Shown here: in pieces, positions 23,493 to 42,869 of the stretch
Position numbering within the stretch: the stretch's first letter is position 1
Layout: each line of letters opens with the position of its first letter
From: Candidatus Woesearchaeota archaeon
GTDB taxonomy: Archaea; Nanobdellota; Nanobdellia; Woesearchaeales; UBA9989
Direction: 5' to 3'
Assembly (NCBI GenBank): GCA_013329045.1
Contig: DUKZ01000020.1
Coordinates: forward strand, 33,489-97,488
DNA: 64,000 bases
Program-made: the position numbers and the translations under genes
Notes under the pieces: model-generated
Database searches by the model: none
The model's input: the letters and a program-made list of their open reading frames with translations, nothing else
Told to the model about the DNA's origin: nothing

Positions 23493-23546
23493 AAGGGAGC
23501 ATTCATTTCCGCTGCCTTTAAATAATGCTCATTTCTACCATGCACC

Positions 23547-24212: not shown

Positions 24213-24323
24213 AAAAGCAGTGAATGATCATTGGAGGGGCATTGACAAGGTAGGGGAGAAGATTGTGGGAGGCAAGGACGGGAAAGAATATATTTAAAAA
24301 TCCCATTCTGTTCTCCTCCCGAT

Positions 24324-24656
24324 ATGGTACTTGGCATTCAGGTTGCAGGCGTCTGTTTCGCCTTGTTCATGCTCTACATCACGTACACGAGCTCAAAGAA
24401 AAAGCAGTTTACCGCAAAGGAATGGGTGTTTTGGAGCCTGATTTGGGTCATGATCGGTCTCATCTCCCTATTCCCAGAACTGCTCGACAGTGTTGTAAAG
24501 CGCTTTCATTTTGCGCGGGCGCTCGATGTCATCATCATTGGAGGATTCATTTTTCTTCTGGGTATCATGTTCTACCAGTATACGGTTATTAGAAAGTGCC
24601 AGAGGAGCATTGAGGAATTGGTGAGGAAGGTTGCGCTGGAAAAGGAGCAGCGATGA
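24324..24656 (+). CDS. DUF2304 small membrane protein (typical partner of GtrB-like GT2)
   Basis: 110 aa with three hydrophobic helices. ATGA overlap with the next gene. Confidence 0.55.
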   Translation: MVLGIQVAGVCFALFMLYITYTSSKKKQFTAKEWVFWSLIWVMIGLISLFPELLDSVVKRFHFARALDVIIIGGFIFLLGIMFYQYTVIRKCQRSIEELVRKVALEKEQR

Positions 24657-25780
24657 CAAGAGTTGGGACGATTAAGGCCATAGACAAGGTTCTTGGCACG
24701 CTCGGTGTTGTTCTTTTGGGATTGAAAAAAAAGAGTCCGCTGCCAAAGTCATTTTCTTCTATCTTATGCATCCAGTTGTGGGGGATGGGAGAGTCGATCT
24801 TGACGTTGCCTGCAATAATCGCAGTGAAGAAAGCAAATCCAAAGGCGACTATTTCAGTGCTGGCAACTGCAAGGAACAAGGATGTGTTTTTTGGTCAAAA
24901 GGATATTGACAACGTCATTGAGCTTGGCATGTCTCCAGGGATGATTCTTTCATTTATGAGGAAAAACAAGGATATGTTTGACCTTGTCATCGACTTTGAG
25001 GAGTACCTCAATATTTCGGCAATCATCGCGGCGAGGGTTGGAAAGCATACAATCGGGTTTTCAGGGCAGCCAAGATCCAGGGTATACGATGAGTCCATCC
25101 CATACAATGATGCACAGCATGTGGTGGTGACATGCATGGACCTGGCAAGGCTCGCTGGTGCAAAGGGGGTGCCAACAGAATTGCCAACGCTTGGTGCTGA
25201 TCTGTCTGATAAGAAGAGGGTTGATATATTCCTTAGAGAGAGTGGTGTTGGGAAACAGCCTTTTGTCGGCTTTGGAACAAGTGTTGCTGAATCATCAAAA
25301 TCTAGGATGTGGCCAAAAGAGAACTTTGCAAGACTTGCAGATTGGATGATAGGGAAAGAAAATGTCCATGTAGTCTTTGTTGGAACAAGAGGGGAGGTGG
25401 ACGCTATCCAGGAGATCATTGAGCTGATGCATCATAAAGATAAGGCAGTAAATGGGGCAGGAAGGCTGTCAATGAGGCAGCTGTTTGATTTTGTCGGTAG
25501 ATGCAGGATGTTTATTGGAAATGACTCTGGGCCAATGCATGTCGCAGCAGCAATGAGAGTTCCTACGATCGGTTTGTTTGGATGCAATCTCCCGGAAAGG
25601 TTTGGGCCATATGGAAAGAATGCTATGGGCATCAGAAAAGTCAAAGAAAGAAAGCCCTGCATCAACGTCCATCAGGGCGAGGTGAGGGAATGCCAGTTCG
25701 AGCAGACATGCGTCTCATTTATCTGGGTAGAAGATGTGCAGGAAGTGTGTGAGAGATTTTTTCGGAGGGAAAGAAAATAA
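24653..25780 (+). CDS. GT9 family glycosyltransferase (ADP-heptose:acceptor heptosyltransferase-like)
   Basis: GNDSGPMHVAAAMRVPTIGLFG C-terminal signature. N-terminal LWGMGESILTLPAI motif. Confidence 0.75.
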   Translation: MTRVGTIKAIDKVLGTLGVVLLGLKKKSPLPKSFSSILCIQLWGMGESILTLPAIIAVKKANPKATISVLATARNKDVFFGQKDIDNVIELGMSPGMILSFMRKNKDMFDLVIDFEEYLNISAIIAARVGKHTIGFSGQPRSRVYDESIPYNDAQHVVVTCMDLARLAGAKGVPTELPTLGADLSDKKRVDIFLRESGVGKQPFVGFGTSVAESSKSRMWPKENFARLADWMIGKENVHVVFVGTRGEVDAIQEIIELMHHKDKAVNGAGRLSMRQLFDFVGRCRMFIGNDSGPMHVAAAMRVPTIGLFGCNLPERFGPYGKNAMGIRKVKERKPCINVHQGEVRECQFEQTCVSFIWVEDVQEVCERFFRRERK

Positions 25781-26787
25781 TGGGAACAAGAAGAGAATTC
25801 CTCAGGGCTGCTGGAGGGATTGCTGCTCTCGCCCTCACGCATGGGTGCTCTGATCCAGTGTATAAGGGAAGGATTGCCTACCTGCTCCGCCAGCAAGGTC
25901 AGAATCTTGAATTATCTCTTGAGGTCGTTGATCTCGCAGCAGCAGGGACAAGATCATTAAGATCATTATATACAAGCCATATTGGTGATCTGGCTGTTAA
26001 TGGCAATGATCTGTACATAGCAGCATTCCCGGAGGAAATTCTCAAGAGGGTGAGCGTTGGCACAGGAGGGGTAGTTGATCTTCAAAGGGATCAACGATTC
26101 GCATATCGCTTCCCTTCCCCTTTAGGTGATGGCTTCTGTGCAGCATCTCTTCGTGAGAGCGGGAATGGTGGCGCTCATTTTCATATTGGTATTGTTGATG
26201 ACCAGCAAACAAGAGTGATCGTGGAGGATATTGCTCAGACGCAATACGCCGCAACCAGAAGAGGGCCAGATGTTGCTGTCGCTTACGCTAAACAAAGAGA
26301 GTCAATGTTGGAGATATGGAAAGGGATATGGACTCCTGAAAATGGCCAATTGAGAAACGATCAGCAGGTAGGTGATATTCCCATGGCGCCGCCAGATCCA
26401 TTCAAGCCCCAGCAATTGTTTCTTCGATTTGTGGGGGATGCATTAACAGTCTCTGATTCATCGATTGGATGTTTGTATTATGAGAAGGATGGATATCTCA
26501 GCCAGGCAGTCCTTGCCCAAGATGCCAGGATGATCAAACCCGGATCATACCTCTATGTCGATCAGGATGATCGCCGGGCAAGCCTTGTTTTGGATGATGG
26601 CTCGCCAAGAGAGATTTGGAGAACTGGTGGGATGATAAGGATTAGTGATATTCAGGACAGCGTAGCCCTTCTCACAAGAAGAGACGTGTATGGGACAGCG
26701 ATGATCATTGTGGATGTGTATTCTCAGGAGCGAATGATTGTTCCGCAAAAGAAGGGAATGCCGTTCATGCCATTGTTCCTGGATTAA
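25780..26787 (+). CDS. Secreted protein with a twin-arginine (Tat) signal and a Cys shortly after the h-region
   Basis: MGTRREFLRAAGGIAALALTHGCSDP. Unknown function; Gly/Asp-rich. Confidence 0.55.
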   Translation: MGTRREFLRAAGGIAALALTHGCSDPVYKGRIAYLLRQQGQNLELSLEVVDLAAAGTRSLRSLYTSHIGDLAVNGNDLYIAAFPEEILKRVSVGTGGVVDLQRDQRFAYRFPSPLGDGFCAASLRESGNGGAHFHIGIVDDQQTRVIVEDIAQTQYAATRRGPDVAVAYAKQRESMLEIWKGIWTPENGQLRNDQQVGDIPMAPPDPFKPQQLFLRFVGDALTVSDSSIGCLYYEKDGYLSQAVLAQDARMIKPGSYLYVDQDDRRASLVLDDGSPREIWRTGGMIRISDIQDSVALLTRRDVYGTAMIIVDVYSQERMIVPQKKGMPFMPLFLD

Positions 26788-27539
26788 GCGGCATGCACAT
26801 ATTCTCCGTGGGTAAAGAAGCCGACGAGCTGTTTGATCTTCGCAATCTTTGGAAAGAGGTGGTTTTCTAGGCTGGTTGTGTGTTCATCGAAGAGTGCAAA
26901 TACTTCTGGCTTGAGGAGATAGATGCCAGCATTCCCGACATGGGATGATATATGTTTTGGTTTTTCCTGGAAGTCGATGATAAGGTCTCCGTCAAGGATA
27001 GCATTGCCGAACCGTGAAGGTTCATTGATGCTCATGAGTCCCATCGTAGCCAGCTTGTCCTGCTGCATATGCTTTTTTTCCATCTGGTGGAGGTCAAAGT
27101 GGTTATAGACATCCCCGCTCATCACGATAAAATCCTGGTTGGACAGCTTGTCCTTGACAGCGAGCAATGCTTGTGCATTCCCTTTGACTGGCGCTTCGAT
27201 GATTTCTGCTGGAAGAATGCTTTGCTGGACTTCCGAATAGAGTTTCACGCTCTCTTTAGTATGCTGGGTCACGATGTATGCCTGCTTTATGCCATGAGAG
27301 TAAAAGAAATGCAATTGCTCAAGAATGAGGGATCGCTTGTGGAGTGATGAGAGGGAAGTGTGCTGGTGTTCACCTTTGAGCAGGAGCACAACTGTCTTGA
27401 TGGACTGCTCCTGGAGCCCTTTTTGGAGAAAGTATTCTATTGCCTGGCTTCTGCTCCTGATGATGGAGCCATCAACATGAGAATCTATCTGTCGGAGGAG
27501 TGGTTCATCGAGAGAGATGGCAATTTTAGCTTTGGTCAT
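26784..27539 (-). CDS. Ribbon-helix-helix (CopG/NikR-like) domain fused to a degenerate sugar-phosphate nucleotidyltransferase-like domain; putative regulator
   Basis: The ATG at 27539 gives MTKAKIAISLDEPLLRQIDSHV (RHH beta-strand plus helix pattern). The C-terminal GDVY...FGNAILDGDLIIDFQEKPK...NAGIYLLKPEVF matches the NTP_transferase core. The N-terminal GxGTRL nucleotide loop is replaced by KGEHQHTSLSS. Confidence 0.55.
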   Translation of the reverse strand: MTKAKIAISLDEPLLRQIDSHVDGSIIRSRSQAIEYFLQKGLQEQSIKTVVLLLKGEHQHTSLSSLHKRSLILEQLHFFYSHGIKQAYIVTQHTKESVKLYSEVQQSILPAEIIEAPVKGNAQALLAVKDKLSNQDFIVMSGDVYNHFDLHQMEKKHMQQDKLATMGLMSINEPSRFGNAILDGDLIIDFQEKPKHISSHVGNAGIYLLKPEVFALFDEHTTSLENHLFPKIAKIKQLVGFFTHGEYVHAA

Positions 27540-27544
27540 ACTAA

Positions 27545-27561
27545 GTATGAAATAGTATGAA
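27545..27561. promoter_or_regulatory. Direct repeat GTATGAA-ATA-GTATGAA adjacent to the regulator start
   Basis: Seen directly. It shares the half-site with the palindrome at 27649. Confidence 0.35.
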
Positions 27562-27648
27562 CTATTTAAACATTGCGTAATTATCCTCATGAAAGAGAAA
27601 GACTTTTGAGATGATAGGGAAAACCTTATAAAGAAGCGGTAAATAAAA

Positions 27649-27678
27649 GTATGAAATATTCATACCTACAGGTGTAGG
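27649..27678. promoter_or_regulatory. Two perfect palindromes (GTATGAA-ATA-TTCATAC and CCTACA-GG-TGTAGG) 11-40 nt upstream of the gmhA ATG; candidate operator
   Basis: Seen directly. They lie between the divergent RHH gene and the heptose operon. A GGAGGGG SD follows. Confidence 0.4.
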
Positions 27679-27688
27679 AGGGGTTCAC

Positions 27689-28303
27689 ATGGAAAACGTG
27701 ATTACGGAAAAAGAGATAGATGAGAAGATCCATCACTGGTTCTTGGAGAGCGCGCGGGTAAAAGAAGAGCTCGCAAGGACGCAGAGGAAGAACATGGCAA
27801 AGATTGCAGCTATCGTTATTGATGCGATCAGGAACGGCAATACCATCTTTGCCTGCGGCAATGGCGGATCGATGTGTGATGCACTGCATTTGACCGAGGA
27901 GCTCACCGGAAGATACAAGAAGAACAGAAAACCTCTCCCGGGACTCTGCCTTGGTGCAAATCAGGGGAGTGTCAGCTGCATCGGGAATGATTTTGGGTAT
28001 GATGATATCTTTTGCCGTGAGGTGCAGGCATTTGGAAAGAAAGGGGATGTTCTCATAGGGTTTAGTACATCAGGAAATTCGCTGAATGTGATAAAAGCGA
28101 TGGGATGTGCAAAAGCGCAGGGGTTAAAAACAATCGCATTGCTGGGAAAAGATGGGGGCAAGATGAAAGGCATGTGCGATGTTGAGATTATCGTTCCCAG
28201 TAATGAATCATCCAGGATCCAGGAGAGCCATATGCTTATCTATCATTCACTAATAGAGCTCGTTGATGATACATTATTTCCGGAGGGTGGAAAACATGAG
28301 TAA
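27689..28303 (+). CDS. gmhA: Sedoheptulose-7-phosphate isomerase (SIS domain)
   Basis: IFACGNGGSMCDALHLTEELTGRY...IGNDFGYDDIF...GDVLIGFSTSGNS...LLGKDGGKM is near-identical in pattern to bacterial GmhA. Confidence 0.85.
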   Translation: MENVITEKEIDEKIHHWFLESARVKEELARTQRKNMAKIAAIVIDAIRNGNTIFACGNGGSMCDALHLTEELTGRYKKNRKPLPGLCLGANQGSVSCIGNDFGYDDIFCREVQAFGKKGDVLIGFSTSGNSLNVIKAMGCAKAQGLKTIALLGKDGGKMKGMCDVEIIVPSNESSRIQESHMLIYHSLIELVDDTLFPEGGKHE

Positions 28304-29768
28304 GCAGTTGCAGGATGCATTAAAGAATGTCGTTGGAAAAAGGATTCTCGTCATTGGCGATGTGATGCTTGATAGGTATGTGTGGGGAAGCGTGGAAAGG
28401 ATTTCCCCTGAAGCGCCAATTCCCATCTGCCTGGTAAAGAGAGAAACAAATGTCCCGGGGGGCGCTGGGAACACAGCTGCAAACATTACAGCAATGAAGG
28501 GAAAATGCACTCTCCTGAGCGTTGTTGGTGATGATGAGGCAAGGAGGATGCTAAACAGCGAACTGGAATCTCGCGGGATTGATGTATCCGCAATGGTCGC
28601 TGAGCAGGAAAGGCCAACGACAAGAAAAACAAGGGTGATGGGCGGCCAGCAGCAGCTGCTCCGGCTGGACTTTGAGGACTCTTCACCGATTAAGGAAGAA
28701 AGCAGGCAAAAGATTATTGGGTATATCAAGAAGAATGTTTCCCTGTTTGACTGCGTGGTCATTTCTGATTATGCGAAGGGGGTCATTGATAGGGAGTTGG
28801 CAGAGGCAGTCGTCCAGGAAGCAGCAAGGGCAAGAAAGCCTTTGCTTGTCGATCCAAAGCCAAAGCATGCAAAATATTTCAAGGGTGCAACATTGATCAC
28901 CCCAAACCATAAGGAGGCTTCTGAGATCGCAGGTATCAGGGAGGAAAAGGAAGCAGACCATATCATCATAGGTAATCATCTCGTGAAGCTGATGGGTTCA
29001 GATATCCTGATCACAAGAGGGGAGAAGGGTATGACCTTGTTTCAGTTGAAGGAGAACGCAATTTCTGTTAATGAGTTCATGACGACGGCAAGGGAAGTGT
29101 ATGATGTGAGCGGTGCTGGGGATACGGTAGTAGCAGCACTTGCCTTATCGATGGCAGCTGGAAATCCCTTAGAGCTGGGGATCATGCTGGCAAATATTGC
29201 TGCAGGGATTAAGGTAGGAAAACTCGGAACTGCTGCTGTCACCTACCATGAGGTAGAGGATAAGATCATGAACATTGACGAGAAGATCAAGTCAAGAGAA
29301 CAAATCACCCTCGTAGCAAAGCAGGTAAGAGCAGAAGGCAAAAAGATAGTCACGACGAATGGCAGCTTTGACCTTCTGCACGCAGGCCACCTGAAATATC
29401 TTAATGAGGCAAAGGCGCAAGGCGACGTTTTGATCGTCGGGCTGAATAGTGATGACTCGGTCAGGCGCTGGAAGAAGACAGTTGGGTATGAGGATTGGAA
29501 AAACAGGCCGATCATTCCAGAGCAGTACCGCGCACGGATGCTTGCTGCATTGAAGAGTGTTGATTATGTGACTATCTTCGATGAGACAGAACCATTTGAG
29601 TTTCTAAACTCAGTCCATCCGGATGTCCATGTCAACGGCTCAGAATACGGGGAAAAGTGTATCGAAGCGGATCTCATCAAGTCGATGGGTGGCAGGATCC
29701 ACATTGTTGAGAAGGAAGCTGGCCTTTCCACATCAGAAGTGATCAAGAAGATCAAGGAGTCAAAGTGA
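28296..29768 (+). CDS. hldE: Bifunctional D-beta-D-heptose 7-phosphate kinase / D-beta-D-heptose 1-phosphate adenylyltransferase
   Basis: The ATG at 28296 follows GGAGGGTGG. The N-terminal PfkB kinase domain has VIGDVMLDRYVWG and DVSGAGDTVVAALA. The C-terminal cytidylyltransferase-fold domain has TNGSFDLLHAGHLKYL. Confidence 0.9.
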   Translation: MSKQLQDALKNVVGKRILVIGDVMLDRYVWGSVERISPEAPIPICLVKRETNVPGGAGNTAANITAMKGKCTLLSVVGDDEARRMLNSELESRGIDVSAMVAEQERPTTRKTRVMGGQQQLLRLDFEDSSPIKEESRQKIIGYIKKNVSLFDCVVISDYAKGVIDRELAEAVVQEAARARKPLLVDPKPKHAKYFKGATLITPNHKEASEIAGIREEKEADHIIIGNHLVKLMGSDILITRGEKGMTLFQLKENAISVNEFMTTAREVYDVSGAGDTVVAALALSMAAGNPLELGIMLANIAAGIKVGKLGTAAVTYHEVEDKIMNIDEKIKSREQITLVAKQVRAEGKKIVTTNGSFDLLHAGHLKYLNEAKAQGDVLIVGLNSDDSVRRWKKTVGYEDWKNRPIIPEQYRARMLAALKSVDYVTIFDETEPFEFLNSVHPDVHVNGSEYGEKCIEADLIKSMGGRIHIVEKEAGLSTSEVIKKIKESK

Positions 29769-30373
29769 TGATAAGCTCTGATGCAGGCAGTAGTAGAAGA
29801 GATGAATTCATCAAGAAGCACATAGAGGAAGTGCAAAAAAGCCTCAGTCGCCTTGATCAGGGAGAGATCAACAGATGCGTGTCCATCTTTTTCGATGCAT
29901 GGAAGCAGAAAAAGACCATCTTTTTCATGGGCAATGGCGGCTCGGGAAGCACGGCCAGCCATTTTGTTGCCGACATGAGCAAGTGGACAATCATTGAGGG
30001 CAGGCCGCGAGTAAGGGCAATTGCCCTAACAGACAATATGCCAAACATTCTTGCCTGGGGAAATGATGATGGATATGAGGCTATCTTTGTGGAGCAGCTA
30101 AAGAACCTGATGGGAAAAGGTGATGTTGTTGTGGGAATTAGCGGCTCTGGAAATTCAAGGAATGTCATTGAGGCGCTAAGATATGCGAATGATAATAATG
30201 CAGCAACCATTGCTTTCCTTGGTTTTGACGGCGGGAAGATGAAAGCAATTGCATCCCATAGCGTCCATGTGAAGAATGATCATATGGGGCAAGTTGAGGG
30301 GATCCATGCAGTGCTCCAGCACATAATTGTTGATGCGTTAAAGAAAGAGATAAAGGACGCAAACGTTCCATAG
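29765..30373 (+). CDS. Second SIS-domain GmhA-family isomerase paralog
   Basis: IFFMGNGGSGSTASHF...GDVVVGISGSGNSRNVIEAL...FLGFDGGKM. ATGA overlap with hldE. Confidence 0.7.
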   Translation: MMISSDAGSSRRDEFIKKHIEEVQKSLSRLDQGEINRCVSIFFDAWKQKKTIFFMGNGGSGSTASHFVADMSKWTIIEGRPRVRAIALTDNMPNILAWGNDDGYEAIFVEQLKNLMGKGDVVVGISGSGNSRNVIEALRYANDNNAATIAFLGFDGGKMKAIASHSVHVKNDHMGQVEGIHAVLQHIIVDALKKEIKDANVP

Positions 30374-30412
30374 GCATCCAGGAGAACATTTATTCGGCGA
30401 GAAAAGGAGGGA

Positions 30413-31276
30413 ATGATGAAAAAGATTGAGAGTATCGAGGAATTGGAAGGGAAGGCAAGAGAATTGCGCATCACTACACTAAAGATGATTCATGCAGCTG
30501 GCTCTGGCCATCCCGGGGGATCATTATCAGCAGCTGATCTGCTCACAGCGATCTATTATCGGTTTATGAGGTTTAAGGCAGACCAGCCAAATTGGCCAGA
30601 GCGAGACAGGCTTATACTTTCAAAGGGCCATTGTTGCCCCATCTTATATGCAATCCTTGCGGATCAGGGATATTTTGAGAAGGAAAAACTCATGACTCTC
30701 AGAAAGATGGGAAGCATCCTCCAGGGCCATCCTGACAGGAATAAAACACCAGGAATAGAAGTTTCATCCGGTAGCCTTGGCCAGGGCCTCAGTGTTGCTG
30801 CGGGTATGGCATTAGCAGGGAAAATAGACAAAAAGCCCTACAAGACATACTGCATCCTTGGCGATGGAGAATTCCAGGAAGGAAGCAACTACGAGGCTTT
30901 GATGGCAGCAGCTCATTTCCGCATTCCAAACCTTGTGGCGATTCTTGATTATAACCAGATCCAACAGTGCGGGATGGTAAAGGATATCATGCATATTGAT
31001 CCAGTCGGTGAGAAAGTGAAAGCTTTTGGATGGAAGGTGTATGAGATTGATGGTCATGATATGGGAGAGATCGTAATGACACTCGAGAAGGCGCAAAAGG
31101 ACACTCAGCCAGTATTTATTGTTGCTCACACGGTGAAAGGGAAAGGTGTCTCGTTCATGGAGCTCAATAAGGATTTCCATGGAAGGGCGCCATCCGACGC
31201 AGAGTTGCATGCTGCGTTGCAGGAACTAGGCACGGTGACCAGCACCCAGCATCCGGCCCAAGGGGGGGTGGCATGA
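30413..31276 (+). CDS. Transketolase, N-terminal (TPP-binding) subunit
   Basis: GSGHPGGSLSAADLLTAIYY and LGDGEFQEG motifs. Split-type tkt. Confidence 0.85.
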   Translation: MMKKIESIEELEGKARELRITTLKMIHAAGSGHPGGSLSAADLLTAIYYRFMRFKADQPNWPERDRLILSKGHCCPILYAILADQGYFEKEKLMTLRKMGSILQGHPDRNKTPGIEVSSGSLGQGLSVAAGMALAGKIDKKPYKTYCILGDGEFQEGSNYEALMAAAHFRIPNLVAILDYNQIQQCGMVKDIMHIDPVGEKVKAFGWKVYEIDGHDMGEIVMTLEKAQKDTQPVFIVAHTVKGKGVSFMELNKDFHGRAPSDAELHAALQELGTVTSTQHPAQGGVA

Positions 31277-32253
31277 TGGCAGAATCGGTCAAGCTTAATC
31301 TTTCTTTCGACACAAGCAAACCAGAGGCGACAAGGGATGGTTTTGGAAAAGGCCTTGTCATCGAAGGTAAAAAGAACAAGGACATTATTGCCCTTGATGG
31401 TGATCTTGCAAACTCTACAAGGTCGGAATGGTTCGGGCAGGAATTTCCTGACCGGTTCTTCAATGTGGGGATTGCTGAGCAAAACCTTGTTGGCATGGCA
31501 GCTGGCCTAGCCCTTGCAGGAAAGATTCCTTTTGCGTGCTCGTTTGCAGGATTCCTTGTCAATAGGGGCCATGACATCATCAGGATTAGTGTTGCCTATT
31601 CAAATGCAAATGTCAAGCTCATTGGCACCCATGGAGGCATCCAGATCGGAGAGGATGGCCCGTCCAACCAGTCGATGAGTGATATTGCCTCTCTCAGGGC
31701 GCTTCCAAGGATGGTTATTGTTAATCCCTGTGACGCTCTCGAAGCGGCAAAGGCTGTTGAGGCATTCGTGAAGACAAAAGGACCGATGTATATGAGGCTC
31801 ACACGCAATAAGCTGCCATATTTTCATAAGGAAGACTACAAGTTCCAGCTCGGAAAGGCAGATATTATAAAGGAAGGCAAGGACGCAACAATCCTGGCAA
31901 CAGGCGCGCTTGTTGCTGAAGCGATGAAGGCAGCAAAAGAATTAGAGAACGAGGGCATTTCGACAAGGGTGATCAACATCCACACGATAAAACCGCTCGA
32001 CGCTGAGGCTGTCCTTCAGGCTGCAAGATCAACGAAGGTGATGATCACTGCTGAGGACCACAATGTCATCGGCGGCCTTGGGGGCGGGGTAGCAGAAGTC
32101 ATCGCTCAGCAGCAGATAAGCATCCCCTTCAGGATCATTGGTGTGAAGGACTCATTCGCAGAGTCTGCAACGCCAGATCAGCTCTTTGAGAAATACGGGC
32201 TGTCCTATCCCCATCTGGTAACCGCAGTAAAGGATCTGATGAAGAGGAAGTAA
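31273..32253 (+). CDS. Transketolase, C-terminal (pyrimidine-binding) subunit
   Basis: Overlaps the N-terminal subunit by ATGA. GIAEQNLVGMAAGLA motif. Confidence 0.85.
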   Translation: MMAESVKLNLSFDTSKPEATRDGFGKGLVIEGKKNKDIIALDGDLANSTRSEWFGQEFPDRFFNVGIAEQNLVGMAAGLALAGKIPFACSFAGFLVNRGHDIIRISVAYSNANVKLIGTHGGIQIGEDGPSNQSMSDIASLRALPRMVIVNPCDALEAAKAVEAFVKTKGPMYMRLTRNKLPYFHKEDYKFQLGKADIIKEGKDATILATGALVAEAMKAAKELENEGISTRVINIHTIKPLDAEAVLQAARSTKVMITAEDHNVIGGLGGGVAEVIAQQQISIPFRIIGVKDSFAESATPDQLFEKYGLSYPHLVTAVKDLMKRK

Positions 32254-32255
32254 GC

Positions 32256-32756
32256 ATGAAAAAAACGATTTATCTTGGTTTTGACCACGGCGCCTTTCAA
32301 GTAAGGGGGTTTGTGAGAAGATACCTTGGGGAAAAACAGGTAGCATACAAAGATTTTTCAAAAGAGAAGCTGGATCCATCAGATGATTATCCGGATGCGG
32401 TAGTGCCAGCAGCAAAGGCCGCTGCAAAAGATGGCTCCTTTGCGATTGTTGGGTGCTCAAGTGGCACGGGAAGCTCGATTGCTGCAAACAAGGTCAAAGG
32501 GATCAGGGCAGCCCCGCTGCATGATGAGACCCTTGTGTATCTGGCAAGGCTTCACAATGACCTGAATTGTCTTGCTCTTCGGGGGATGATTTTTTCCTCA
32601 GATATCCAGATGCAAACAGCAGGTTCATACATTAATTTATTGTCGATCAAGCACACCTCAGTGACAGAACAGGAAGTGAGAAAATTGGTGAAGGTATTCC
32701 TTGAAACCGAGTTTGAAGGCGGCCGTCATCAGAAAAGGATTGAGAAGATCGAATGA
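32256..32756 (+). CDS. rpiB: Ribose-5-phosphate isomerase B
   Basis: LGFDHGAF...GCSSGTGSSIAANKVKGIRAA...EGGRHQKRIEKI matches RpiB/LacAB. Confidence 0.8.
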   Translation: MKKTIYLGFDHGAFQVRGFVRRYLGEKQVAYKDFSKEKLDPSDDYPDAVVPAAKAAAKDGSFAIVGCSSGTGSSIAANKVKGIRAAPLHDETLVYLARLHNDLNCLALRGMIFSSDIQMQTAGSYINLLSIKHTSVTEQEVRKLVKVFLETEFEGGRHQKRIEKIE

Positions 32757-32780
32757 AAGAAGAAGTGAGTTGAAAGAAGG

Positions 32781-33416
32781 ATGAACAAAAAAAAGTCTAT
32801 CATTTCCGTATCATTCCTCTCAGCAGACCAAGGAATGCTCAAAGAGGAGCTCGAATCAGTTGGTACTGCTGATTATTTCCACGTTGATGTGATGGACGGT
32901 AGGTTTGTTCCAAGAAAGACGTACTGCCCGGAAGATATCATCAGCCTCGAACTCACTGTTCCGCTCGATGTGCACCTGATGGTTGATAAGCCGGAAAATA
33001 TGATTGATGATTGGCTAAGAACAGGACCATCTATTGTGGTATTCCATTATGAAGCAACAACAAAGCACAAAGAGATTATTGCAATGCTCCACAAGCAGGA
33101 GGTCAAAGCCGGCATCTCGGTAAAACCGGGAACGCCGGCAAAAGTCCTCTTCCCATTCCTCGCGACAATCGACCTTGTTTTGGTCATGACTGTTGAGCCT
33201 GGCGCTGCGGGCCAATCATTTATGCCAGAAATGCTGGAAAAAGTAAGAGGTTTAAGGAAAGCTGGCTTCAAGGGAATCATCGAGGTCGATGGCGGGATCA
33301 CGCTGGAGAACCAGAAGAAGGCAAAGCTTGCAGGAGCGGACATGTTTGTTTCCGCATCATTCATATTCAAACACAAGGACAGGAAAGCCATTATTCGGCA
33401 GATGCAGGAGGTATGA
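32781..33416 (+). CDS. rpe: Ribulose-phosphate 3-epimerase
   Basis: HVDVMDGRFVP, DVHLMV and EVDGGI motifs. Confidence 0.8.
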   Translation: MNKKKSIISVSFLSADQGMLKEELESVGTADYFHVDVMDGRFVPRKTYCPEDIISLELTVPLDVHLMVDKPENMIDDWLRTGPSIVVFHYEATTKHKEIIAMLHKQEVKAGISVKPGTPAKVLFPFLATIDLVLVMTVEPGAAGQSFMPEMLEKVRGLRKAGFKGIIEVDGGITLENQKKAKLAGADMFVSASFIFKHKDRKAIIRQMQEV

Positions 33417-34075
33417 AGATGGAAATTTGGGCAGATACAGCAAATACAGCGGAGATCGAGAAGATCAATGCGCTTGGAATCCTAGATGGTGTGACAACTA
33501 ATCCAAGCTTGATTGCAAAAGAGGCTGGCGATCCAATCGCGATTTTAAAGAGGATAACATCAGTTGTTAAAGGGCCTGTTTCTGCAGAGGTGATTAGCGT
33601 TGAAGCTGATGGGATGATAAAGGAAGGAACTAAGCTGGCAGGCATTGCTCCAAACATTGTTGTAAAGATCCCAATGGGCATAGAAGGGTTAAAAGCAATT
33701 AAAGTGCTGCATCAGAAAGGTATTCGCACGAACTGCACGTTGACTTTTTCTGCTAACCAGGCACTTCTTGCAGCAAAGGCTGGCGCATCGTATGTCAACG
33801 CTTTTGTTGGAAGAATTGATGATGAGGGTGATGATGGCTTTCGCCTCGTCCAGGATATCCTGGTGATGCTGGAGAACTATAAGCTCCAGTCAGAGCTCAT
33901 CGTCGCATCAATCAGGCATCCCTGGCATGTCCATCTCTCAGCCCAAGCAGGAGCGCATGTTGCAACGATTCCAACAGCAGTCATCGAGAAGATGGCCAGC
34001 CACATAAGGACAACTGAGGGGATCAATAAGTTTCTTGCAGATTGGAACAAGGCAGGAAAGGAATACAAGATTTGA
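33413..34075 (+). CDS. tal: Transaldolase, short Fsa/TalC subfamily
   Basis: WADTANTAEIEK...GVTTNPSL...VVKIPMG...TNCTLTFS...FVGRIDD resembles MJ0960-type transaldolase. Confidence 0.85.
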   Translation: MKMEIWADTANTAEIEKINALGILDGVTTNPSLIAKEAGDPIAILKRITSVVKGPVSAEVISVEADGMIKEGTKLAGIAPNIVVKIPMGIEGLKAIKVLHQKGIRTNCTLTFSANQALLAAKAGASYVNAFVGRIDDEGDDGFRLVQDILVMLENYKLQSELIVASIRHPWHVHLSAQAGAHVATIPTAVIEKMASHIRTTEGINKFLADWNKAGKEYKI

Positions 34076-34110
34076 TAGTGTAAAGTGGAGTTGCGCTGGA
34101 AAAGGTTTGA

Positions 34111-34192
34111 AGCAACAACAATGGCACAAATCGCGTAGGCTCTACGCGAAGGTTTTCAAAGAAAACCGGTTTGTCGCCAGTATTGTTGTTGC
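34111..34192. repeat. Double-hairpin palindromic element, copy B
   Basis: Outer 11-bp perfect stem GCAACAACAAT/ATTGTTGTTGC, extended imperfectly. Inner hairpins CGCGTAG-gct-CTACGCG and GGTTTT-caaag-AAAACC. Confidence 0.6.
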
Positions 34193-34235
34193 CCAATGAA
34201 ATGAAAGGTAGAGTGAGTCAATAATTAAAGAGGGC

Positions 34236-35219
34236 ATGATGTACAAAAATCTGGCATTGGAATTTGTCCGGGCAACCGAAGCAGCAGCGCTAGCCAGCGC
34301 TAAGTGGATGGGCAAGGGCAATGAGAAGATGGCTGATCACGCAGCAGTTGAGGCAATGAGGAAGCATTTCAACTTCATGGATATTGATGGAACGGTGGTT
34401 ATTGGTGAGGGTGAGCGTGATGAAGCTCCCATGCTCTACATTGGAGAGAAGCTTGGCAACGGAAAAGGGCCAAAAGTTGATATCGCTGTTGATCCATTGG
34501 AAGGAACAACAATTACGGCAAGGGGGGATCCAAACGCAATAACCGTTCTGGCTTCCGCACCAAAGGGCCATTTGCTCCATTCACCGGACACCTATATGGA
34601 CAAGATCGCTGTGGGGAAAGATGCTGTTGGTGTCATTGATCTTGATGCATCAGTAAAAGATAACATTCTCGCTGTCGCAGATAAGCTTGGGAAGGATTGT
34701 GATGAGATAACCGTGATTATTCTTGATCGTGACCGCCATATTGAACTCATCAAGCAGGTGAGGGAGTGTGGCTGCAGGATCAGGCTTATTCGTGATGGTG
34801 ATGTTGCAGGCGCTCTCGCCCCAGCTCTTCCAGACTCTGGTATTGACATTTTGATGGGTATTGGCGGTGCCCCGGAAGGTGTTCTTGGCGCTGCTGGCTT
34901 GAAATGTCTTGGTGGTGAGATTCAAGGAAGGCTCAAGTTCAGGAACCCCTCAGAGAAAGAGCGGGCGATTGGTATGGGGTTGAGCGATCCAGAAAAGATT
35001 TTCACCATGAAGGAGATGGTGGGAGGGGAAGATGTGATGTTTGCAGCAACGGGCGTGACTGACGGCACCATCCTGAAGGGGGTGAGATTTATTCATAACG
35101 GCGCATCGACCCATTCATTGGTGATGCGGTCAGCTTCTGGCACAGTAAGATTCATTGAGGCAAATCATAAGTTTGGAGATGAAAGAGGTGATATCCATGA
35201 AAAAAATGAAAGAAAGTGA
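34236..35219 (+). CDS. glpX: Fructose-1,6-bisphosphatase class II / sedoheptulose-1,7-bisphosphatase (GlpX family)
   Basis: ALEFVRATEAAALASAKWMGKG...DGTVVIGEGERDEAPMLYIGEKLG...DIAVDPLEGTT aligns closely with E. coli GlpX. Confidence 0.85.
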   Translation: MMYKNLALEFVRATEAAALASAKWMGKGNEKMADHAAVEAMRKHFNFMDIDGTVVIGEGERDEAPMLYIGEKLGNGKGPKVDIAVDPLEGTTITARGDPNAITVLASAPKGHLLHSPDTYMDKIAVGKDAVGVIDLDASVKDNILAVADKLGKDCDEITVIILDRDRHIELIKQVRECGCRIRLIRDGDVAGALAPALPDSGIDILMGIGGAPEGVLGAAGLKCLGGEIQGRLKFRNPSEKERAIGMGLSDPEKIFTMKEMVGGEDVMFAATGVTDGTILKGVRFIHNGASTHSLVMRSASGTVRFIEANHKFGDERGDIHEKNERK

Positions 35220-36138
35220 CGTAGGAGTTCCAGGGGATGTTCCAGCAGGTGCAAAGAAAACATACATCAAAAATTTCCTGAAGGTGACCCATAACACTAG
35301 GAGAGTTATGCTGTTTGCGGGCGACCAAAAGATTGAGCATCTCAATGATGATTTTTATGGCACTGTTAAGATGGAAGGAAAAGAAGTGTCGATCTCAAAA
35401 GATGATGCCGATCCAGAGCACCTTTTTAGGATTGCATCAAAGGCAAATATTGGTGTCTTTGCAGGCCAGCTAGGCCTCATCGCCCGGTATGGAAAGTCAT
35501 ACAAGAACATTCCTTACCTGATTAAGCTTAATTCAAAATCCCACTTGGTAAAGACAGAACTCCAGGATCCGTTGAGCAAGGCTTTGTGGGATATTGAGCG
35601 TATTGTAAAATTCAGGAAAGACTCAGGCTTGAATGTTGTTGGTGTTGGCTATACTGTTTATGTTGGCAGCATGTATGAGCCAAAAATGCTCAAGGAGGCA
35701 GCAAGGATCGCTTTTGATGCGCATCAAGCTGGCCTTTTGGCAATTTTCTGGATGTATCCGAGGGGAAAAGCAATTCTTGATGAGAAAGATCCTCATTTGA
35801 TTGCCGGGGCAGCCGGCACAGGTGCCTGTCTTGGTGCTGACTTTGTGAAGGTAAATTATCCAAAGCCAAAGGAAGGAAAAGCCGCAGAATCATTCAAGGA
35901 AGCAGTGCTCGCTGCCGGAAGGACTGGGGTGATTACTGCTGGCGGCTCTTCTAAGCCTCCAAGGGAGTTTTTACAGGAAACTTGGGATCAGATCCACATC
36001 GCTGGCTGTCGGGGAAATGCTACCGGAAGAAATATCCATCAGCGGTCTCTCAGTGAAGCAGTAAAGCTGGCTAATGCCATTGCCTCAATCACGTATGAGG
36101 ACAAGAGTGTTGATGAAGCGATGAAGATGATGGGGTGA
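35197..36138 (+). CDS. fbaB: Class I fructose-bisphosphate aldolase, DhnA/FbaB archaeal type
   Basis: The ATG at 35197 follows GAGGTGAT. YLIKLNSKSHL, VGYTVYVGS, LAIFWMYPRG, GADFVKVNYPK and GRNIHQ blocks. Confidence 0.75.
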   Translation: MKKMKESDVGVPGDVPAGAKKTYIKNFLKVTHNTRRVMLFAGDQKIEHLNDDFYGTVKMEGKEVSISKDDADPEHLFRIASKANIGVFAGQLGLIARYGKSYKNIPYLIKLNSKSHLVKTELQDPLSKALWDIERIVKFRKDSGLNVVGVGYTVYVGSMYEPKMLKEAARIAFDAHQAGLLAIFWMYPRGKAILDEKDPHLIAGAAGTGACLGADFVKVNYPKPKEGKAAESFKEAVLAAGRTGVITAGGSSKPPREFLQETWDQIHIAGCRGNATGRNIHQRSLSEAVKLANAIASITYEDKSVDEAMKMMG

Positions 36139-36169
36139 GATATGTTTTTTCTTTATTTATTATCTTCAG

Positions 36170-36720
36170 CAATGAATGGCCCAATCGGGGCAGAGCCCCG
36201 GGGTATCTCCTCAAAAACTTATGAGCTTTAACTGATTGGGGTCACCGCCTTGCTTCCTAATATATTCTTTCATCTGCTCTTCTCCATAGCCATCGCCAAC
36301 AGTATCAATGTGTCCTCCCTCTGTCCAGAAGTGACCTCCCCACAATTCCTCACGGAGCTTAGGAAACCTCTTGAACGTTTCTTTTGCAGTAATGCTTTTA
36401 CAAATCATCATCACTTGCGATGGAGAGTATCGAGGCGCTGCCTCGACAAGAATATGTAAATGATCCTCATCAGTCCCCATCGCATGAAACTGCAAATAAT
36501 ACCGCTTACCAATGCCAAGTAAGATTTCTTTCAAATATTTGCTCACCTCATCGGTGAGTAAATCCTTACGATACTTGACAACAAATACCACATGATATCG
36601 GATGCGATAACTACAATAAGAAGCATAACGCACTTCCATAAAAAGAAAAAAAGCGTCATGTATTCATAAAATGAGAGGCACTACGGGGCAGAGCCCCGGG
36701 GTATTTACCCAAATAGGAAT
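36170..36720. mobile_element. IS200/IS605-family element (tnpA only), with the same hairpin motif at both ends
   Basis: CGGGGCAGAGCCCCGGGGTAT at 36186-36206 and 36684-36704, in direct orientation. They flank a Y1-transposase gene. Confidence 0.65.
36211..36639 (-). CDS. tnpA: IS200-like HUH/Y1 transposase
   Basis: YHVVFVVKYRK...HLHILVEAAPRYSPSQV is the classical IS200 TnpA pattern. 142 aa. Confidence 0.85.
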   Translation of the reverse strand: MEVRYASYCSYRIRYHVVFVVKYRKDLLTDEVSKYLKEILLGIGKRYYLQFHAMGTDEDHLHILVEAAPRYSPSQVMMICKSITAKETFKRFPKLREELWGGHFWTEGGHIDTVGDGYGEEQMKEYIRKQGGDPNQLKLISF

Positions 36721-42511: not shown

Positions 42512-42869
42512 GGACATAAAGAATCTGGGAGGGCTAGTAACCATAGCAGTAGTCATTGTTCAAGTGTTCTTTAGCAAGACAAACATCTTGATAACCGCAA
42601 GGCTTGTTATTTCTCTCGTATGGATTTCCCTCATTCCAGGGTATGGTCTTTTGCTGACATGGCGAGAGAGGCTGACCTTCTTGGAGTATAGTGTTCTTGC
42701 AGCATTTGTTGGTGCCTCAGTAACAGGAATCCTCAGTTATCACCTGGGCCTCATTGGAGTTAATTTGTCATCACAACCAATCCTTCTTCCGTTAATCTTA
42801 TTAATGATTGGCATTGCCATCGAGTGGAAGGTGAAAAAACATGAAACCGCAAACCCATCTCACCGTTAG
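42489..42869 (+). CDS. Small hypothetical membrane protein
   Basis: 126 aa with 3-4 TM helices. Overlaps its neighbours. Confidence 0.4.
   Translation: MNQKSLLEDIKNLGGLVTIAVVIVQVFFSKTNILITARLVISLVWISLIPGYGLLLTWRERLTFLEYSVLAAFVGASVTGILSYHLGLIGVNLSSQPILLPLILLMIGIAIEWKVKKHETANPSHR

Follow-up and report, generated by a model that had tools for sequence, protein, structure and literature searches.

Seven genes with strong matches to Pfam and NCBIfam family profiles were confirmed on the + strand between positions 30413 and 36138 of the window, i.e., the whole 64-kb stretch of DNA that was analyzed (Table 1). In order from 30413 they code for a split transketolase, RpiB, Rpe, a transaldolase, a class II fructose-1,6-bisphosphatase (FBPase; GlpX) and a class I aldolase, in agreement with the first-pass annotation of this DNA. 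The DNA comes from an uncultivated archaeon of the Woesearchaeota (DPANN). As also stated there, the block directly follows heptose genes: it begins 39 nt past gmhA-hldE-gmhA', and the ten genes from gmhA to the aldolase gene form a same-strand array. An AglB/GT9 heptose glycosylation island surrounds the block, which has glycosyltransferases on both flanks and does not lie at the island's edge. The gene arrangement is identical on two JGI contigs (L001 and L002) and on an NCBI MAG contig of 132 kb; since these independent assemblies agree, the array is no assembly chimera. No HPS/PHI, PRK or RuBisCO gene was found in the 64-kb window.

Table 1 Features of the heptose and sugar-phosphate gene array and its borders (window positions)
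Feature	Position	Strand	Support or remark
Palindromic TATA-box-like element CCTTATAAAG	27624..27634	.	PWM 10.8 bits at 27625
Candidate operator, perfect palindrome GTATGAA-ATA-TTCATAC	27649..27665	.	Between TATA box and gmhA
gmhA, sedoheptulose-7-phosphate isomerase	27689..28303	+	TIGR00441 211 bits (cutoff 209)
hldE, bifunctional heptose-7-P kinase/heptose-1-P adenylyltransferase	28296..29768	+	TIGR02198 362 bits (cutoff 345)
gmhA', divergent second SIS-domain GmhA paralog	29765..30373	+	TIGR00441 109 bits (cutoff 209)
tktN, transketolase N-terminal (ThDP-binding) subunit	30413..31276	+	PF00456 191 bits
tktC, transketolase pyrimidine-binding and C-terminal subunit	31273..32253	+	PF02779 147 bits, PF02780 111 bits
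rpiB, ribose-5-phosphate isomerase B family	32256..32756	+	PF02502 129 bits
rpe, ribulose-phosphate 3-epimerase	32781..33416	+	PF00834 188 bits; NF004076 196 bits (cutoff 165)
tal, short (subfamily 5) transaldolase	33413..34075	+	TIGR00875 286 bits (cutoff 246)
tal-glpX spacer, 160 nt, long nested hairpin (core about 34111-34191)	34076..34235	+	Folding
glpX, class II fructose-1,6-bisphosphatase	34236..35219	+	TIGR00330 391 bits (cutoff 259)
Class I (Schiff-base) aldolase gene, PRK06852 family	35197..36138	+	NF005321 482 bits (cutoff 420)
T-rich stretch TTTTTTCTTTATTTATTATCTT, archaeal terminator-like	36142..36165	+	Directly after aldolase stop
IS200-type transposase gene (36211-36639) and flanking repeats	36186..36713	-	PF01797 115 bits

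Short or overlapping junctions had been proposed for this array, and they occur nearly throughout. gmhA and hldE overlap by 8 nt, the hldE/gmhA' junction reads GTGATGA, and ATGA overlaps join tktN to tktC and rpe to tal. Gaps of 2 nt and 24 nt separate tktC from rpiB and rpiB from rpe, and the gmhA'-tktN gap, at 39 nt the upper limit for these junctions, contains an SD-like motif but lacks a TATA box. glpX and the aldolase gene overlap by 23 to 41 nt, depending on the aldolase start. The exception is the tal-glpX junction, whose genes lie 160 nt apart with a long hairpin between them.

The two transketolase subunits match the N-terminal and C-terminal halves of the same model, NF004559, with 337 and 336 bits, respectively. 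Their closest known relative is encoded on a Logan contig (SRR22216449, here L174) of a related uncultivated archaeon, with 62.5% identity for TktN and 58% for TktC, and in 21 of 30 neighbor-joining bootstraps the TktC of the window and that of L174 are sisters. RpiB scores 121.5 bits against TIGR00689 (cutoff 88) and falls below the cutoff of the rpiB equivalog TIGR01120 (89 versus 139 bits). The best PDB matches of Tal are the transaldolases of B. subtilis, T. maritima and T. acidophilum (209 to 228 bits). The possibility that it is an F6P aldolase was discarded, as E. coli FSA reaches only 120 bits compared with up to 228 for true transaldolases. Tkt and Tal both fall among Woesearchaeota homologs.

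GlpX is 72 to 75% identical to many Woesearchaeota GlpX proteins. It matches FBPases and cyanobacterial F/SBPases of the PDB about equally well, so that these two classes are not separable by sequence; an SBPase activity of GlpX, and with it an SBP shunt, is possible by analogy. The aldolase open reading frame spans 35155-36138, with a likely start at ATG 35197 or 35179. The protein has a DeoC/LacD fold, matches PDB 4MOZ, a "fructose-bisphosphate aldolase" (E = 8e-101), and aligns with T. tenax FBPA at the Lys (GADFVKVNY) and WxYPRG motifs. It had been annotated as an FbaB aldolase. The class I assignment holds, but the protein belongs to the PRK06852 family (482 bits) and not to FbaB/DhnA proper, the PRK09250 models giving at most 100 bits against a cutoff of 277. 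Its best library representative is an FBPase-aldolase fusion, which together with the overlap of the two genes indicates that FBPase and aldolase are paired.

GmhA matches PDB phosphoheptose isomerases (E = 1e-53) and retains the HxxEE and QESH motifs. HldE, composed of PfkB and CTP_transf_like domains, is 100% identical to an NCBI Woesearchaeota protein. GmhA' shares 33% identity with GmhA and has Asp at the catalytic Glu position (HFVADMS versus HLTEELT in GmhA). Its gene holds the slot where relatives have gmhB. No GmhB/HAD homolog was found anywhere in the 64-kb window, whereas one is encoded within the operon in L174 and in two other related lineages (L083 and L176/L177). Sedoheptulose-7-phosphate (S7P) is the established GmhA substrate and a pentose-phosphate intermediate (PMC10671730).

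Promoter-like sites were sought with a home-made PWM trained on the TATA boxes of the window itself. The only strong + strand site for the ten-gene array is the TATA-like element upstream of gmhA, which is common to gmhA and the divergent NTP-transferase gene. None of the nine genes after gmhA has a site of at least 7 bits at a distance of 20 to 70 nt upstream. SD-like motifs precede most internal genes of the array, whereas in promoter-led genes of the window the TATA box lies 21 to 33 nt upstream and an SD is lacking. The palindrome between the TATA box and gmhA occurs once in the window. TATA box and palindrome are common to the window, L083 and L176/L177, the palindrome at the same position upstream of gmhA; it is absent from L174. 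The T-rich stretch after the aldolase gene is the only intergenic T-run of at least 5 within the array. With one strong promoter, SD-like motifs and this terminal T-rich stretch, a single transcript of the ten genes is plausible. The tal-glpX spacer has an MFE of -46.5 kcal/mol (z = -3.1 versus shuffles), with no strong TATA box, oligo-T run or Rfam match, and no other copies were found in the window or the fetched loci except in the same-species contigs L001 and L002. The highest PWM score near it, 6.0 bits, belongs to a site inside the hairpin spacer that precedes glpX by 83 nt. Because this weak site precedes glpX, glpX and the aldolase gene could be a separate unit, as in relatives. The right border of the array is an IS200-type element, whose gene is flanked by two copies of the hairpin repeat CGGGGCAGAGCCCCGGGGTAT (direct repeat D10, 30 nt, 90% identity).

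Comparison with relatives gave mixed evidence on the linkage of pentose-phosphate and heptose genes. In other Woesearchaeota, TrmB-tktN-tktC-(EamA)-tal is a separate housekeeping operon, near PheRS and ribosomal genes or beside shikimate genes, and glpX-fba(PF00274)-gap is another, near exosome/proteasome genes. These operons resemble the window in that glpX directly precedes an aldolase gene, tkt and tal are linked, Tkt and Tal are 50 to 55% identical to those of the window, and GlpX is 72 to 75% identical. They differ in lying at two loci, in informational or housekeeping neighborhoods, and in lacking rpiB, rpe and heptose genes. In the window the two sub-blocks are joined into one, which includes rpiB and rpe in addition but neither gap nor TrmB, and the PF00274 aldolase is replaced by the nonorthologous PRK06852-type enzyme. 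Occurrence in relatives that lack the heptose genes, named beforehand as evidence against a unit feeding glycan synthesis, is thus seen for the sub-blocks but not for the whole seven-gene block. The latter was found beside heptose genes in this species only, and in none of 160 other transketolase loci scanned. Conversely, the two lineages L083 and L176/L177 have gmhA-hldE-gmhB without any pentose-phosphate genes, indicating that linkage to the latter is not required for heptose synthesis. According to PMC11606122, the nonoxidative pentose-phosphate pathway is the core route of sugar metabolism in Woesearchaeota.

L174 shares with the window a syntenic island (geranylgeranyl reductase, STT3, GT2, DUF2304, GT9 and the NTP-transferase gene on the - strand) and a split transketolase in one operon with gmhA, a heptose kinase and an adenylyltransferase. 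Its operon follows the NTP-transferase gene and reads tktN-tktC-gmhA-kinase-(adenylyltransferase+HAD). The tkt pair thus comes first, upstream of gmhA, whereas it is downstream in the window. The L174 operon further differs in lacking rpiB, rpe, tal, glpX, the aldolase gene and the palindromic operator, and in that hldE is split, with the adenylyltransferase fused to a HAD phosphatase.

GmhA and the bifunctional HldE, with family-level scores, the entry substrate S7P and nearby GT9 heptosyltransferases recall the Gram-negative ADP-L-glycero-beta-D-manno-heptose pathway (GmhA, HldE, GmhB, HldD). In contrast to known heptose pathways, the window genes lie in an archaeal AglB (STT3) island, gmhB is missing within 64 kb, a second, divergent GmhA paralog is encoded, and S7P-producing enzymes follow in the array. 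A full-text literature search combining heptose, transketolase, gene cluster and sedoheptulose returned nothing relevant, and we know of no described heptose cluster with S7P-producing enzymes arranged in this way. Archaeal NDP-heptose enzymes have been recognized recently (Tang et al. 2024, as cited in PMC11461863). Sugar-phosphate genes tied to one specialized pathway are found in bacterial cbb operons (FBP/SBPase, tkt, fba, rpe) and, with a GlpX-type bisphosphatase and an aldolase, on B. methanolicus pBM19 (glpX, fba, tkt, pfk and rpe with mdh). The latter carries extra glpX, fba, tkt and rpe; its GlpX-P is a proven SBPase, and the FBAs function as SBP aldolases (PMC3905653). Both kinds of gene set are used for C1 or CO2 assimilation and consist of extra copies with different regulation, whereas the window genes are attached to a glycan precursor pathway and look like the only, housekeeping copies.

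We consider it fairly probable that housekeeping sugar-phosphate genes have been recruited beside the heptose genes, are likely co-transcribed with them and supply S7P and pentoses. The block would represent the ordinary sugar-phosphate interconversion machinery of a Woesearchaeote, gathered in this lineage and set directly downstream of gmhA-hldE-gmhA' inside the glycosylation island. A single transcription unit of about 8.5 kb most likely comprises all ten genes. It would run from the heptose promoter upstream of gmhA, which is conserved and probably under the control of a repressor, to the T-rich stretch; the hairpin between tal and glpX may act in processing or stability. The aldolase and GlpX would turn triose phosphates into F6P, from which Tkt, Tal, Rpe and Rpi would yield S7P, to be converted to ADP-heptose by GmhA and HldE. 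The enzyme set had been noted to bear on S7P, and it exactly suffices for the route from triose phosphates to S7P. The same enzymes would still provide ribose-5-P and erythrose-4-P to the cell, and the coupling would therefore amount to a co-location of housekeeping supply genes with the pathway that consumes their product, not to a dedicated second pathway.

The neighborhood might instead be coincidental, with housekeeping units that keep their own unrecognized promoters and were placed there by rearrangement, perhaps through IS200, with no coupling. The independent sub-block operons of relatives, the L083 and L176/L177 heptose operons devoid of pentose-phosphate genes, the IS200 element at the right border, and the structured 160-nt spacer with its weak TATA-like site are in line with this. 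We nevertheless regard it as rather unlikely, given that just 39 nt, which include an SD-like motif but not a TATA box, separate gmhA' from tktN and that glycosylation genes lie on both sides. Moreover, the closest transketolase, that of L174, is again in a heptose operon, and an accidental association is unlikely to have arisen twice.

An extra pentose-phosphate/SBPase/aldolase set dedicated to making S7P for heptose, with housekeeping copies elsewhere, is less probable still. It would include an SBP shunt in which the aldolase forms SBP from E4P and DHAP and GlpX converts SBP to S7P. The operon-like array directly after the heptose genes and the PRK06852-type aldolase, different from the usual Woesearchaeota FBA (PF00274), would fit, but GlpX is as close to the housekeeping GlpX of many Woesearchaeota as noted above (72 to 75%), and Tkt and Tal group among Woesearchaeota homologs. 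Central enzymes are seldom duplicated in the small genomes of DPANN archaea, which also argues against an extra set. Precedents exist in the extra set of pBM19 and in an E. coli anabolic pentose-phosphate route through TktB, FbaA and GlpX on sedoheptulose-1,7-bisphosphate (bioRxiv 10.1101/2024.09.07.611820). In the latter, a transketolase, an aldolase and GlpX make S7P by the chemistry that the first-pass annotation had proposed; however, the route appears only with zwf and talAB deleted, and its genes are dispersed. As a transaldolase is present in the window, the shunt would be optional rather than needed, and sequence does not tell an FBPase from an F/SBPase. The absence of a GmhB/HAD homolog from the window, compared with its in-operon presence in the three related lineages, the Glu-to-Asp paralog GmhA' exactly at the gmhB position and the bisphosphatase in the same array could also point to a modified higher-sugar branch. 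GmhA', the transaldolase and GlpX would then act on nonstandard substrates; for example, the transaldolase could make an octulose phosphate, as in the synthesis of lincosamide GDP-octose, or GlpX could stand in for GmhB as the heptose-bisphosphate phosphatase. This appears very improbable: GlpX and Tal are near housekeeping orthologs, GmhB may simply be encoded elsewhere in the genome, an octose has no positive support, and viral and eukaryotic heptose enzyme sets without a heptose phosphatase (PMC11461863) provide a precedent for doing without a dedicated one.

Recruitment of housekeeping genes beside the heptose pathway thus remains our preferred explanation. The metabolically coupled unit suggested earlier is consistent with the tight array, the single TATA-like site, the SD-like motifs, the terminal T-rich stretch and the transketolase in the L174 heptose operon, and the supply genes are probably co-expressed with the heptose pathway. 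The accompanying claim that the unit feeds glycan synthesis rather than housekeeping metabolism is not supported, in view of the housekeeping sub-blocks of relatives, the conserved GlpX and the two lineages with heptose genes alone, and neither is a dedicated glycan-only gene set. If these genes are the only copies, it would be odd for essential genes to depend on a regulated heptose promoter alone. The layout makes metabolic sense and is unusual, but its components are housekeeping genes and it does not constitute a new pathway.

Every gene that the first-pass annotation had named in the block at 30413-36138 was recovered by ORF listing and profile searches, all on the + strand. The block continues the heptose genes into a ten-gene array, gmhA-hldE-gmhA'-tktN-tktC-rpiB-rpe-tal-glpX-aldolase, whose features and surroundings are collected in the table.

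Features of the ten-gene array, its promoter region and the flanking glycosylation island (positions are those of the window unless another locus is named; profile scores in bits)
Feature	Position	Strand	Description
Island, upstream side	18777-27590		geranylgeranyl-reductase-family gene, STT3/AglB, GT2, DUF2304, GT9 heptosyltransferase, Tat/lipobox protein, divergent NTP-transferase
Promoter and palindrome	27624-27665		upstream of gmhA
Promoter and palindrome, L083 (related lineage)	about 9310-9356		upstream of gmhA
Promoter and palindrome, L176 (related lineage)	about 2900-2940		upstream of gmhA
gmhA	27689-28303	+	directly upstream of the block; TIGR00441 211.1 (cutoff 209.45)
hldE	28296-29768	+	TIGR02198 362.1 (cutoff 345)
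gmhA'	29765-30373	+	second, divergent SIS-domain gene; 33% identical to GmhA; 109 against a gmhA cutoff of 209
tktN	30413-31276	+	split transketolase, N-terminal ThDP-binding domain; PF00456 191
tktC	31273-32253	+	pyrimidine-binding and C-terminal domains; PF02779 147, PF02780 111
rpiB	32256-32756	+	RpiB/LacAB family; PF02502 128.7 (cutoff 24.7), TIGR00689 121.5 (cutoff 88.3)
rpe	32781-33416	+	ribulose-phosphate 3-epimerase; NF004076 196 (cutoff 165), PF00834 187.6
tal	33413-34075	+	short transaldolase (TalC/MipB/FSA group); TIGR00875 285.8 (cutoff 245.95)
tal-glpX spacer	34076-34235		160 nt with three inverted repeats that form a long nested hairpin; -46.5 kcal/mol, z = -3.1
glpX	34236-35219	+	class II fructose-1,6-bisphosphatase; TIGR00330 391.5 (cutoff 259.3)
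Class I aldolase	ORF 35155-36138	+	PRK06852 type, DeoC/LacD fold; start ATG 35197 or 35179, overlapping the glpX end
IS200-type Y1 transposase gene	36186-36713 with flanks	-	directly after the putative aldolase terminator, right border of the block
Island, downstream side	36759-63954		GT2, methyltransferases, YfhO-like, DUF6044/DUF6541 membrane proteins, two GT9, PMT_2, GT2, HldD-like epimerase

The transketolase domains reside on two polypeptides encoded by adjacent, ATGA-overlapping genes, as expected of a split two-subunit enzyme, and its two halves reached 337 and 336 bits with the NF004559 'transketolase' model (full-length cutoff, 488). The context with rpiB, rpe and tal favors a probable pentose-phosphate-pathway (PPP) function over that of a glycan-modifying ThDP enzyme. 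By analogy with bacterial split transketolase genes within NDP-sugar cassettes, other roles are conceivable. Those cassettes are found in operons of Verrucomicrobiae, Pseudomonadota and Microcoleus (L071, 7430-13412; L078, 7460-10840; L061, 6774-14738) that encode a GmhA-like SIS protein, or an HldE-like kinase/nucleotidyltransferase and a HAD phosphatase, along with SDR epimerases/dehydratases, a split transketolase and an APH-type kinase. They represent a recurrent and apparently undescribed arrangement, in which the transketolase may supply sedoheptulose-7-phosphate (S7P) or modify the sugar.

RpiB did not reach the rpiB-specific equivalogs (TIGR01120, 89.3 bits for a cutoff of 138.65; NF004051, 124.6 for a cutoff of 135), so its substrate assignment rests on context; the protein aligned to the model in two stretches, indicating an insertion. 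Rpe scored slightly below the equivalog TIGR01163 (194.1 for a cutoff of 212.6). The transaldolase label was upheld by scores of 209-228 bits against the PDB transaldolases 3R8R, 1VPX and 3S0C, compared with ~120 bits against E. coli fructose-6-phosphate aldolase (FSA). A Pfam scan of most but not all window ORFs of at least 150 aa detected no RuBisCO/phosphoribulokinase or HPS/PHI domains, and a carbon-assimilation regeneration cluster of the cbb or RuMP type was therefore rejected as far as the scanned ORFs are concerned.

GlpX matched PF03320 over its full length (472 bits) and FBPases of the PDB with an E value of 3e-99. Its scores were equal, at 286 bits, against the monofunctional GlpX 1NI9 and the cyanobacterial F/SBPase 3ROJ, so that FBPase and F/SBPase are not separable by sequence. 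The aldolase had initially been labeled FbaB, an assignment that did not hold, as the best score in the PRK09250 series (FbaB/DhnA) was 100.5 bits for NF006704 (cutoff, 277). The protein belongs instead to the small PRK06852 family (NF005321, 481.8 bits for a cutoff of 420; PDB 4MOZ, E = 8e-101). Its GADFVKVNY and FWMYPRG motifs align with GADAMKIKY and VWSYPRG of T. tenax FBPA. Archaeal-type class IA aldolases have a Schiff-base lysine and a WxYPRG tyrosine, and the window protein keeps both. Its best-scoring relative, the library representative P0361 (61% identity), is a 628-aa protein in which a class I FBPase (PF00316 and PF18913) is fused to the aldolase domain; the fusion, known from one short Logan contig of 4 kb, may link this aldolase family to FBPase in the Rosetta-stone manner. 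The overlap of the two genes, the glpX-aldolase order kept in relatives with a non-orthologous aldolase, and the fusion representative together support the prediction that the aldolase works with an FBPase. In the glpX loci of other Woesearchaeota (L085, L087 and L089), glpX is followed by a PF00274 (eukaryote-type class I) aldolase gene and gap, whereas the window has a PRK06852/DeoC-fold aldolase and no gap at that place, which looks like a non-orthologous displacement.

Upstream of these genes, GmhA and the kinase domain of HldE both pass as members of their families in an ADP-heptose cassette. The adenylyltransferase and full-length equivalogs of HldE remained below cutoff (TIGR02199, 159.3 for 181.5; NF008454, 445.5 for 521); the adenylyltransferase domain is present but divergent (PF01467, 61 bits), and nucleotide specificity could therefore differ from ADP. 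GmhA' has an Asp at the position of the catalytic Glu of GmhA and reaches no more than 30 bits with the PHI model, versus 109 bits with gmhA. Its gene occupies the place where related lineages (L083, L176 and L177) have gmhB. A tblastn search with the L083 GmhB found no GmhB/HAD phosphatase in the 64-kb window (best E = 1.2), while gmhB is in the operon of L083, L176, L177 and L174, the last being the heptose operon of a related uncultivated archaeon; it may be that gmhB lies elsewhere, beyond the window. Archaeal NDP-heptose enzymes have been reported and only recently recognised, and what purpose they serve is still a question in the literature (PMC11461863).

The short or overlapping junctions described in the first-pass annotation were found for most of the array, with overlaps or gaps of at most 39 nt, but not between tal and glpX, where the 160-nt spacer intervenes. 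ATGA overlaps join tktN to tktC and rpe to tal, the hldE/gmhA' junction reads GTGATGA, and gmhA and hldE overlap by 8 nt; gaps of 2, 24 and 39 nt separate tktC from rpiB, rpiB from rpe, and gmhA' from tktN. As the host is an archaeon, sigma-70 and intrinsic-terminator scanning was set aside for a position weight matrix (PWM) trained on the window's own TATA boxes and run over the + strand of 27500-36300. Window genes that follow true intergenic gaps mostly have a (C/T)TTTT(A/T)A(A/T)A box 21-39 nt before the start codon and no Shine-Dalgarno sequence. Only one strong site came out of the scan, CTTATAAAGA, which scores 10.8 bits at 27625 and lies 64 nt upstream of gmhA; this palindromic box is shared with the divergent NTP-transferase gene. 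None of the nine genes after gmhA had a PWM site of at least 7 bits at 20-70 nt upstream. GGAGG-like motifs precede most internal genes of the array, and the sole intergenic T-rich stretch, TTTTTTCTTTATTTATTATCTT, is directly 3' of the aldolase stop. The lone strong TATA box, the Shine-Dalgarno-like motifs and the terminal T-rich stretch would fit one ten-gene transcript from gmhA to the aldolase gene with an internal structured element. The signals that run counter to a single operon are upstream of glpX: a weak TATA-like site, the best candidate in that region (6.0 bits, 83 nt upstream), and the hairpin in whose loop it lies.

This hairpin had no Rfam match and contained no tRNA. Neither did it behave as a repeat element, as no second copy was detected in the window or in the loci of other species, copies being limited to the same-species JGI contigs L001 and L002, on which the array itself is present. 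A processing site, an attenuator or a recombination scar are possible explanations. Upstream of gmhA, the window, L083, L176 and L177 share a TATA box, AAACCTT(T)ATA, followed 15-20 nt further on by the palindrome GTATGAA-N3/4-TTCATAC. The palindrome, which occurs once in the 64-kb window, is a candidate operator through which some regulator would control the heptose operon. A different conserved motif, the tandem GTATGATAAAGTATGATAAAT, is located upstream of glpX in L085 (about 9940-9975, with equivalents in L087 and L089), immediately 5' to a strong TATA box (AAAGTTTAAATATAAGG); the half-site of the tandem is similar to GTATGA in the palindrome at the heptose operon.

An assembly chimera was ruled out. 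Independent JGI contigs show the gene order again, as does a 132-kb MAG contig, and HldE, TktC and GlpX are identical or nearly so to NCBI proteins of 'Candidatus Woesearchaeota archaeon'. Thus, the arrangement is real and archaeal (DPANN). It is embedded in a glycosylation island with an STT3/AglB protein of 1205 aa (WWDYG at residue 814) and three GT9 heptosyltransferases overall, one upstream and two downstream of the block. The core order STT3-GT2-DUF2304-GT9-NTP-transferase(-)-gmhA is kept in L083 and L174, and the gene content suggests that Woesearchaeota may make heptose-containing N-glycans. At the right border, two copies of the hairpin-forming repeat CGGGGCAGAGCCCCGGGGTAT bracket the IS200-type transposase gene; the element may be a trace of the rearrangement from which the array arose. 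Elsewhere in the island, a 335-aa ORF between the GT9 and NTP-transferase genes (25780-26787) has a Tat-like signal and a lipobox (MGTRREFLRAAGGIAALALTHGC); it matched no family and lacks a counterpart in L083. The GC content drops to 0.37-0.40, versus about 0.46, at 42000-52000, a region that encodes proteins of 1366 and 1128 aa for which no Pfam annotation was obtained; further giant ORFs (2225, 1234 and 887 aa) are present at 3961-18624. The giant proteins may be surface proteins and targets of glycosylation.

On the heptose side, even the closest homologs of HldE share only about 50% identity with it. In L083, the order STT3-GT2-DUF2304-GT9-NTP-transferase(-) is followed by the divergently placed gmhA-hldE-gmhB and then by a GT2 and an epimerase gene, in synteny with the window, and there is no pentose-phosphate gene within 10 kb; L176 and L177 likewise have gmhA-hldE-gmhB. 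Hundreds of GlpX proteins of Woesearchaeota and Nanoarchaeota are 70-75% identical to that of the window. In three genomes with long contigs, glpX heads a glpX-fba(PF00274)-gap unit that adjoins exosome, proteasome and RNase P genes and is divergent from NTP-transferase and PGM/PMM genes; a fourth genome has glpX alone. An origin of the array by insertion into such an ancestral NTP-transferase(-)/glpX pair was rejected, because the NTP-transferase of the window is 58% identical to the one in the L083 heptose cluster and 31-32% to the glpX-adjacent one. Woesearchaeota transketolase homologs (50-55% identical) are encoded in the order TrmB-tktN-tktC-(EamA)-tal, in the vicinity of genes for PheRS and ribosomal proteins, or as tktN-tktC-tal-shikimate pathway. 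Woesearchaeota are described as mostly lacking pfk and as having the non-oxidative PPP for their main sugar route (PMC11606122).

The closest TktC anywhere, P0253 (58%), is encoded on L174, whose TktN is 62.5% identical to ours. There, geranylgeranyl-reductase-STT3-GT2-DUF2304-GT9 genes are followed, further on, by a minus-strand NTP-transferase gene and the divergent tktN-tktC-gmhA-PfkB kinase-(adenylyltransferase+HAD); transketolase is thus part of the heptose operon in that lineage. Neighbor joining of 122 TktC sequences placed the window protein and P0253 as sisters in 21 of 30 bootstraps; the clade around them also contains a Woesearchaeota sequence from NCBI. The full seven-gene block was absent from 160 further split-transketolase loci (TktN scan of genome contigs, TktC scan of metagenome contigs, tblastn of all window proteins), in which the best identities were 49-58%; these pattern-based scans missed real relatives, which were reached by a large protein search and context look-ups. 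The bacterial operons of L061, L071 and L078, in which a split transketolase and an APH-type kinase accompany GmhA-like, HldE-like or GmhB-like genes, came from these wider scans.

These contexts bear on the proposal that the block feeds glycan synthesis rather than housekeeping carbon metabolism. Its second half was not borne out: tkt-tal and glpX-aldolase are conserved housekeeping units in the group, and neither they nor the heptose operon needs the other. Sub-blocks were found in relatives without heptose genes, which weakens the idea of a coupled unit as far as the sub-blocks are concerned; the full seven-gene block was found in no relative. Because GlpX is so close in sequence to its housekeeping orthologs, the genes of the window are probably the cell's ordinary copies, not a dedicated duplicate set. 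The reading we hold to be fairly probable is that housekeeping supply genes were recruited to the consumer heptose pathway and are probably co-transcribed with it. The enzyme set is exactly that needed to go from triose phosphates to S7P: the aldolase and GlpX would yield fructose-6-phosphate, Tkt, Tal, Rpe and Rpi would convert it to S7P, and GmhA and HldE would activate the latter. A merely neutral neighborhood of unrelated units seems rather unlikely. The free-standing sub-blocks of relatives would suit it; pure accident is disfavored because both units, with rpiB and rpe, are joined to the 3' end of the heptose genes, because they show no strong promoter signal of their own, and because the most closely related transketolase is independently inside another heptose operon, that of L174.

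A dedicated module in which the aldolase and GlpX make S7P by a sedoheptulose-1,7-bisphosphate (SBP) shunt is improbable. Such chemistry is real elsewhere, being carried out by GlpX-P and FBAs of B. methanolicus (PMC3905653) and in the anabolic PPP of E. coli (bioRxiv 10.1101/2024.09.07.611820), but transaldolase is present here and the sequence cannot tell an FBPase from an F/SBPase. We regard as quite improbable a more elaborate scheme, in which the array would by itself take triose phosphate all the way to nucleotide-heptose, co-regulated under the conserved heptose promoter/operator, with GlpX as SBPase in an aldolase/SBP shunt and/or GmhB substitute and GmhA' making another heptose or higher-sugar isomer for the N-glycan; if true, it would make central carbon metabolism transcriptionally subordinate to surface-glycan synthesis in a reduced DPANN genome. 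An altered higher-sugar pathway, lastly, appears very unlikely.

All the enzyme families are already known and their chemistry is textbook. What is new is the architecture, with sugar-phosphate supply genes appended to a heptose operon within an archaeal N-glycosylation island, and a second lineage shows the transketolase part of it. Its significance is modest, the coupling between supply and consumption being deduced from layout. The locus sets archaeal heptose enzymes in an AglB/GT9 island, a hint that glycans of DPANN archaea contain heptose. At least two lineages have brought the S7P-producing transketolase into a heptose operon, and this one has brought in the entire sugar-phosphate rearrangement set. 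For a symbiont-like archaeon with a minimal genome, recruitment of the supply genes would mean that precursor supply and surface-glycan synthesis are expressed together, making the locus a simple, testable example of operon growth through recruited housekeeping genes.
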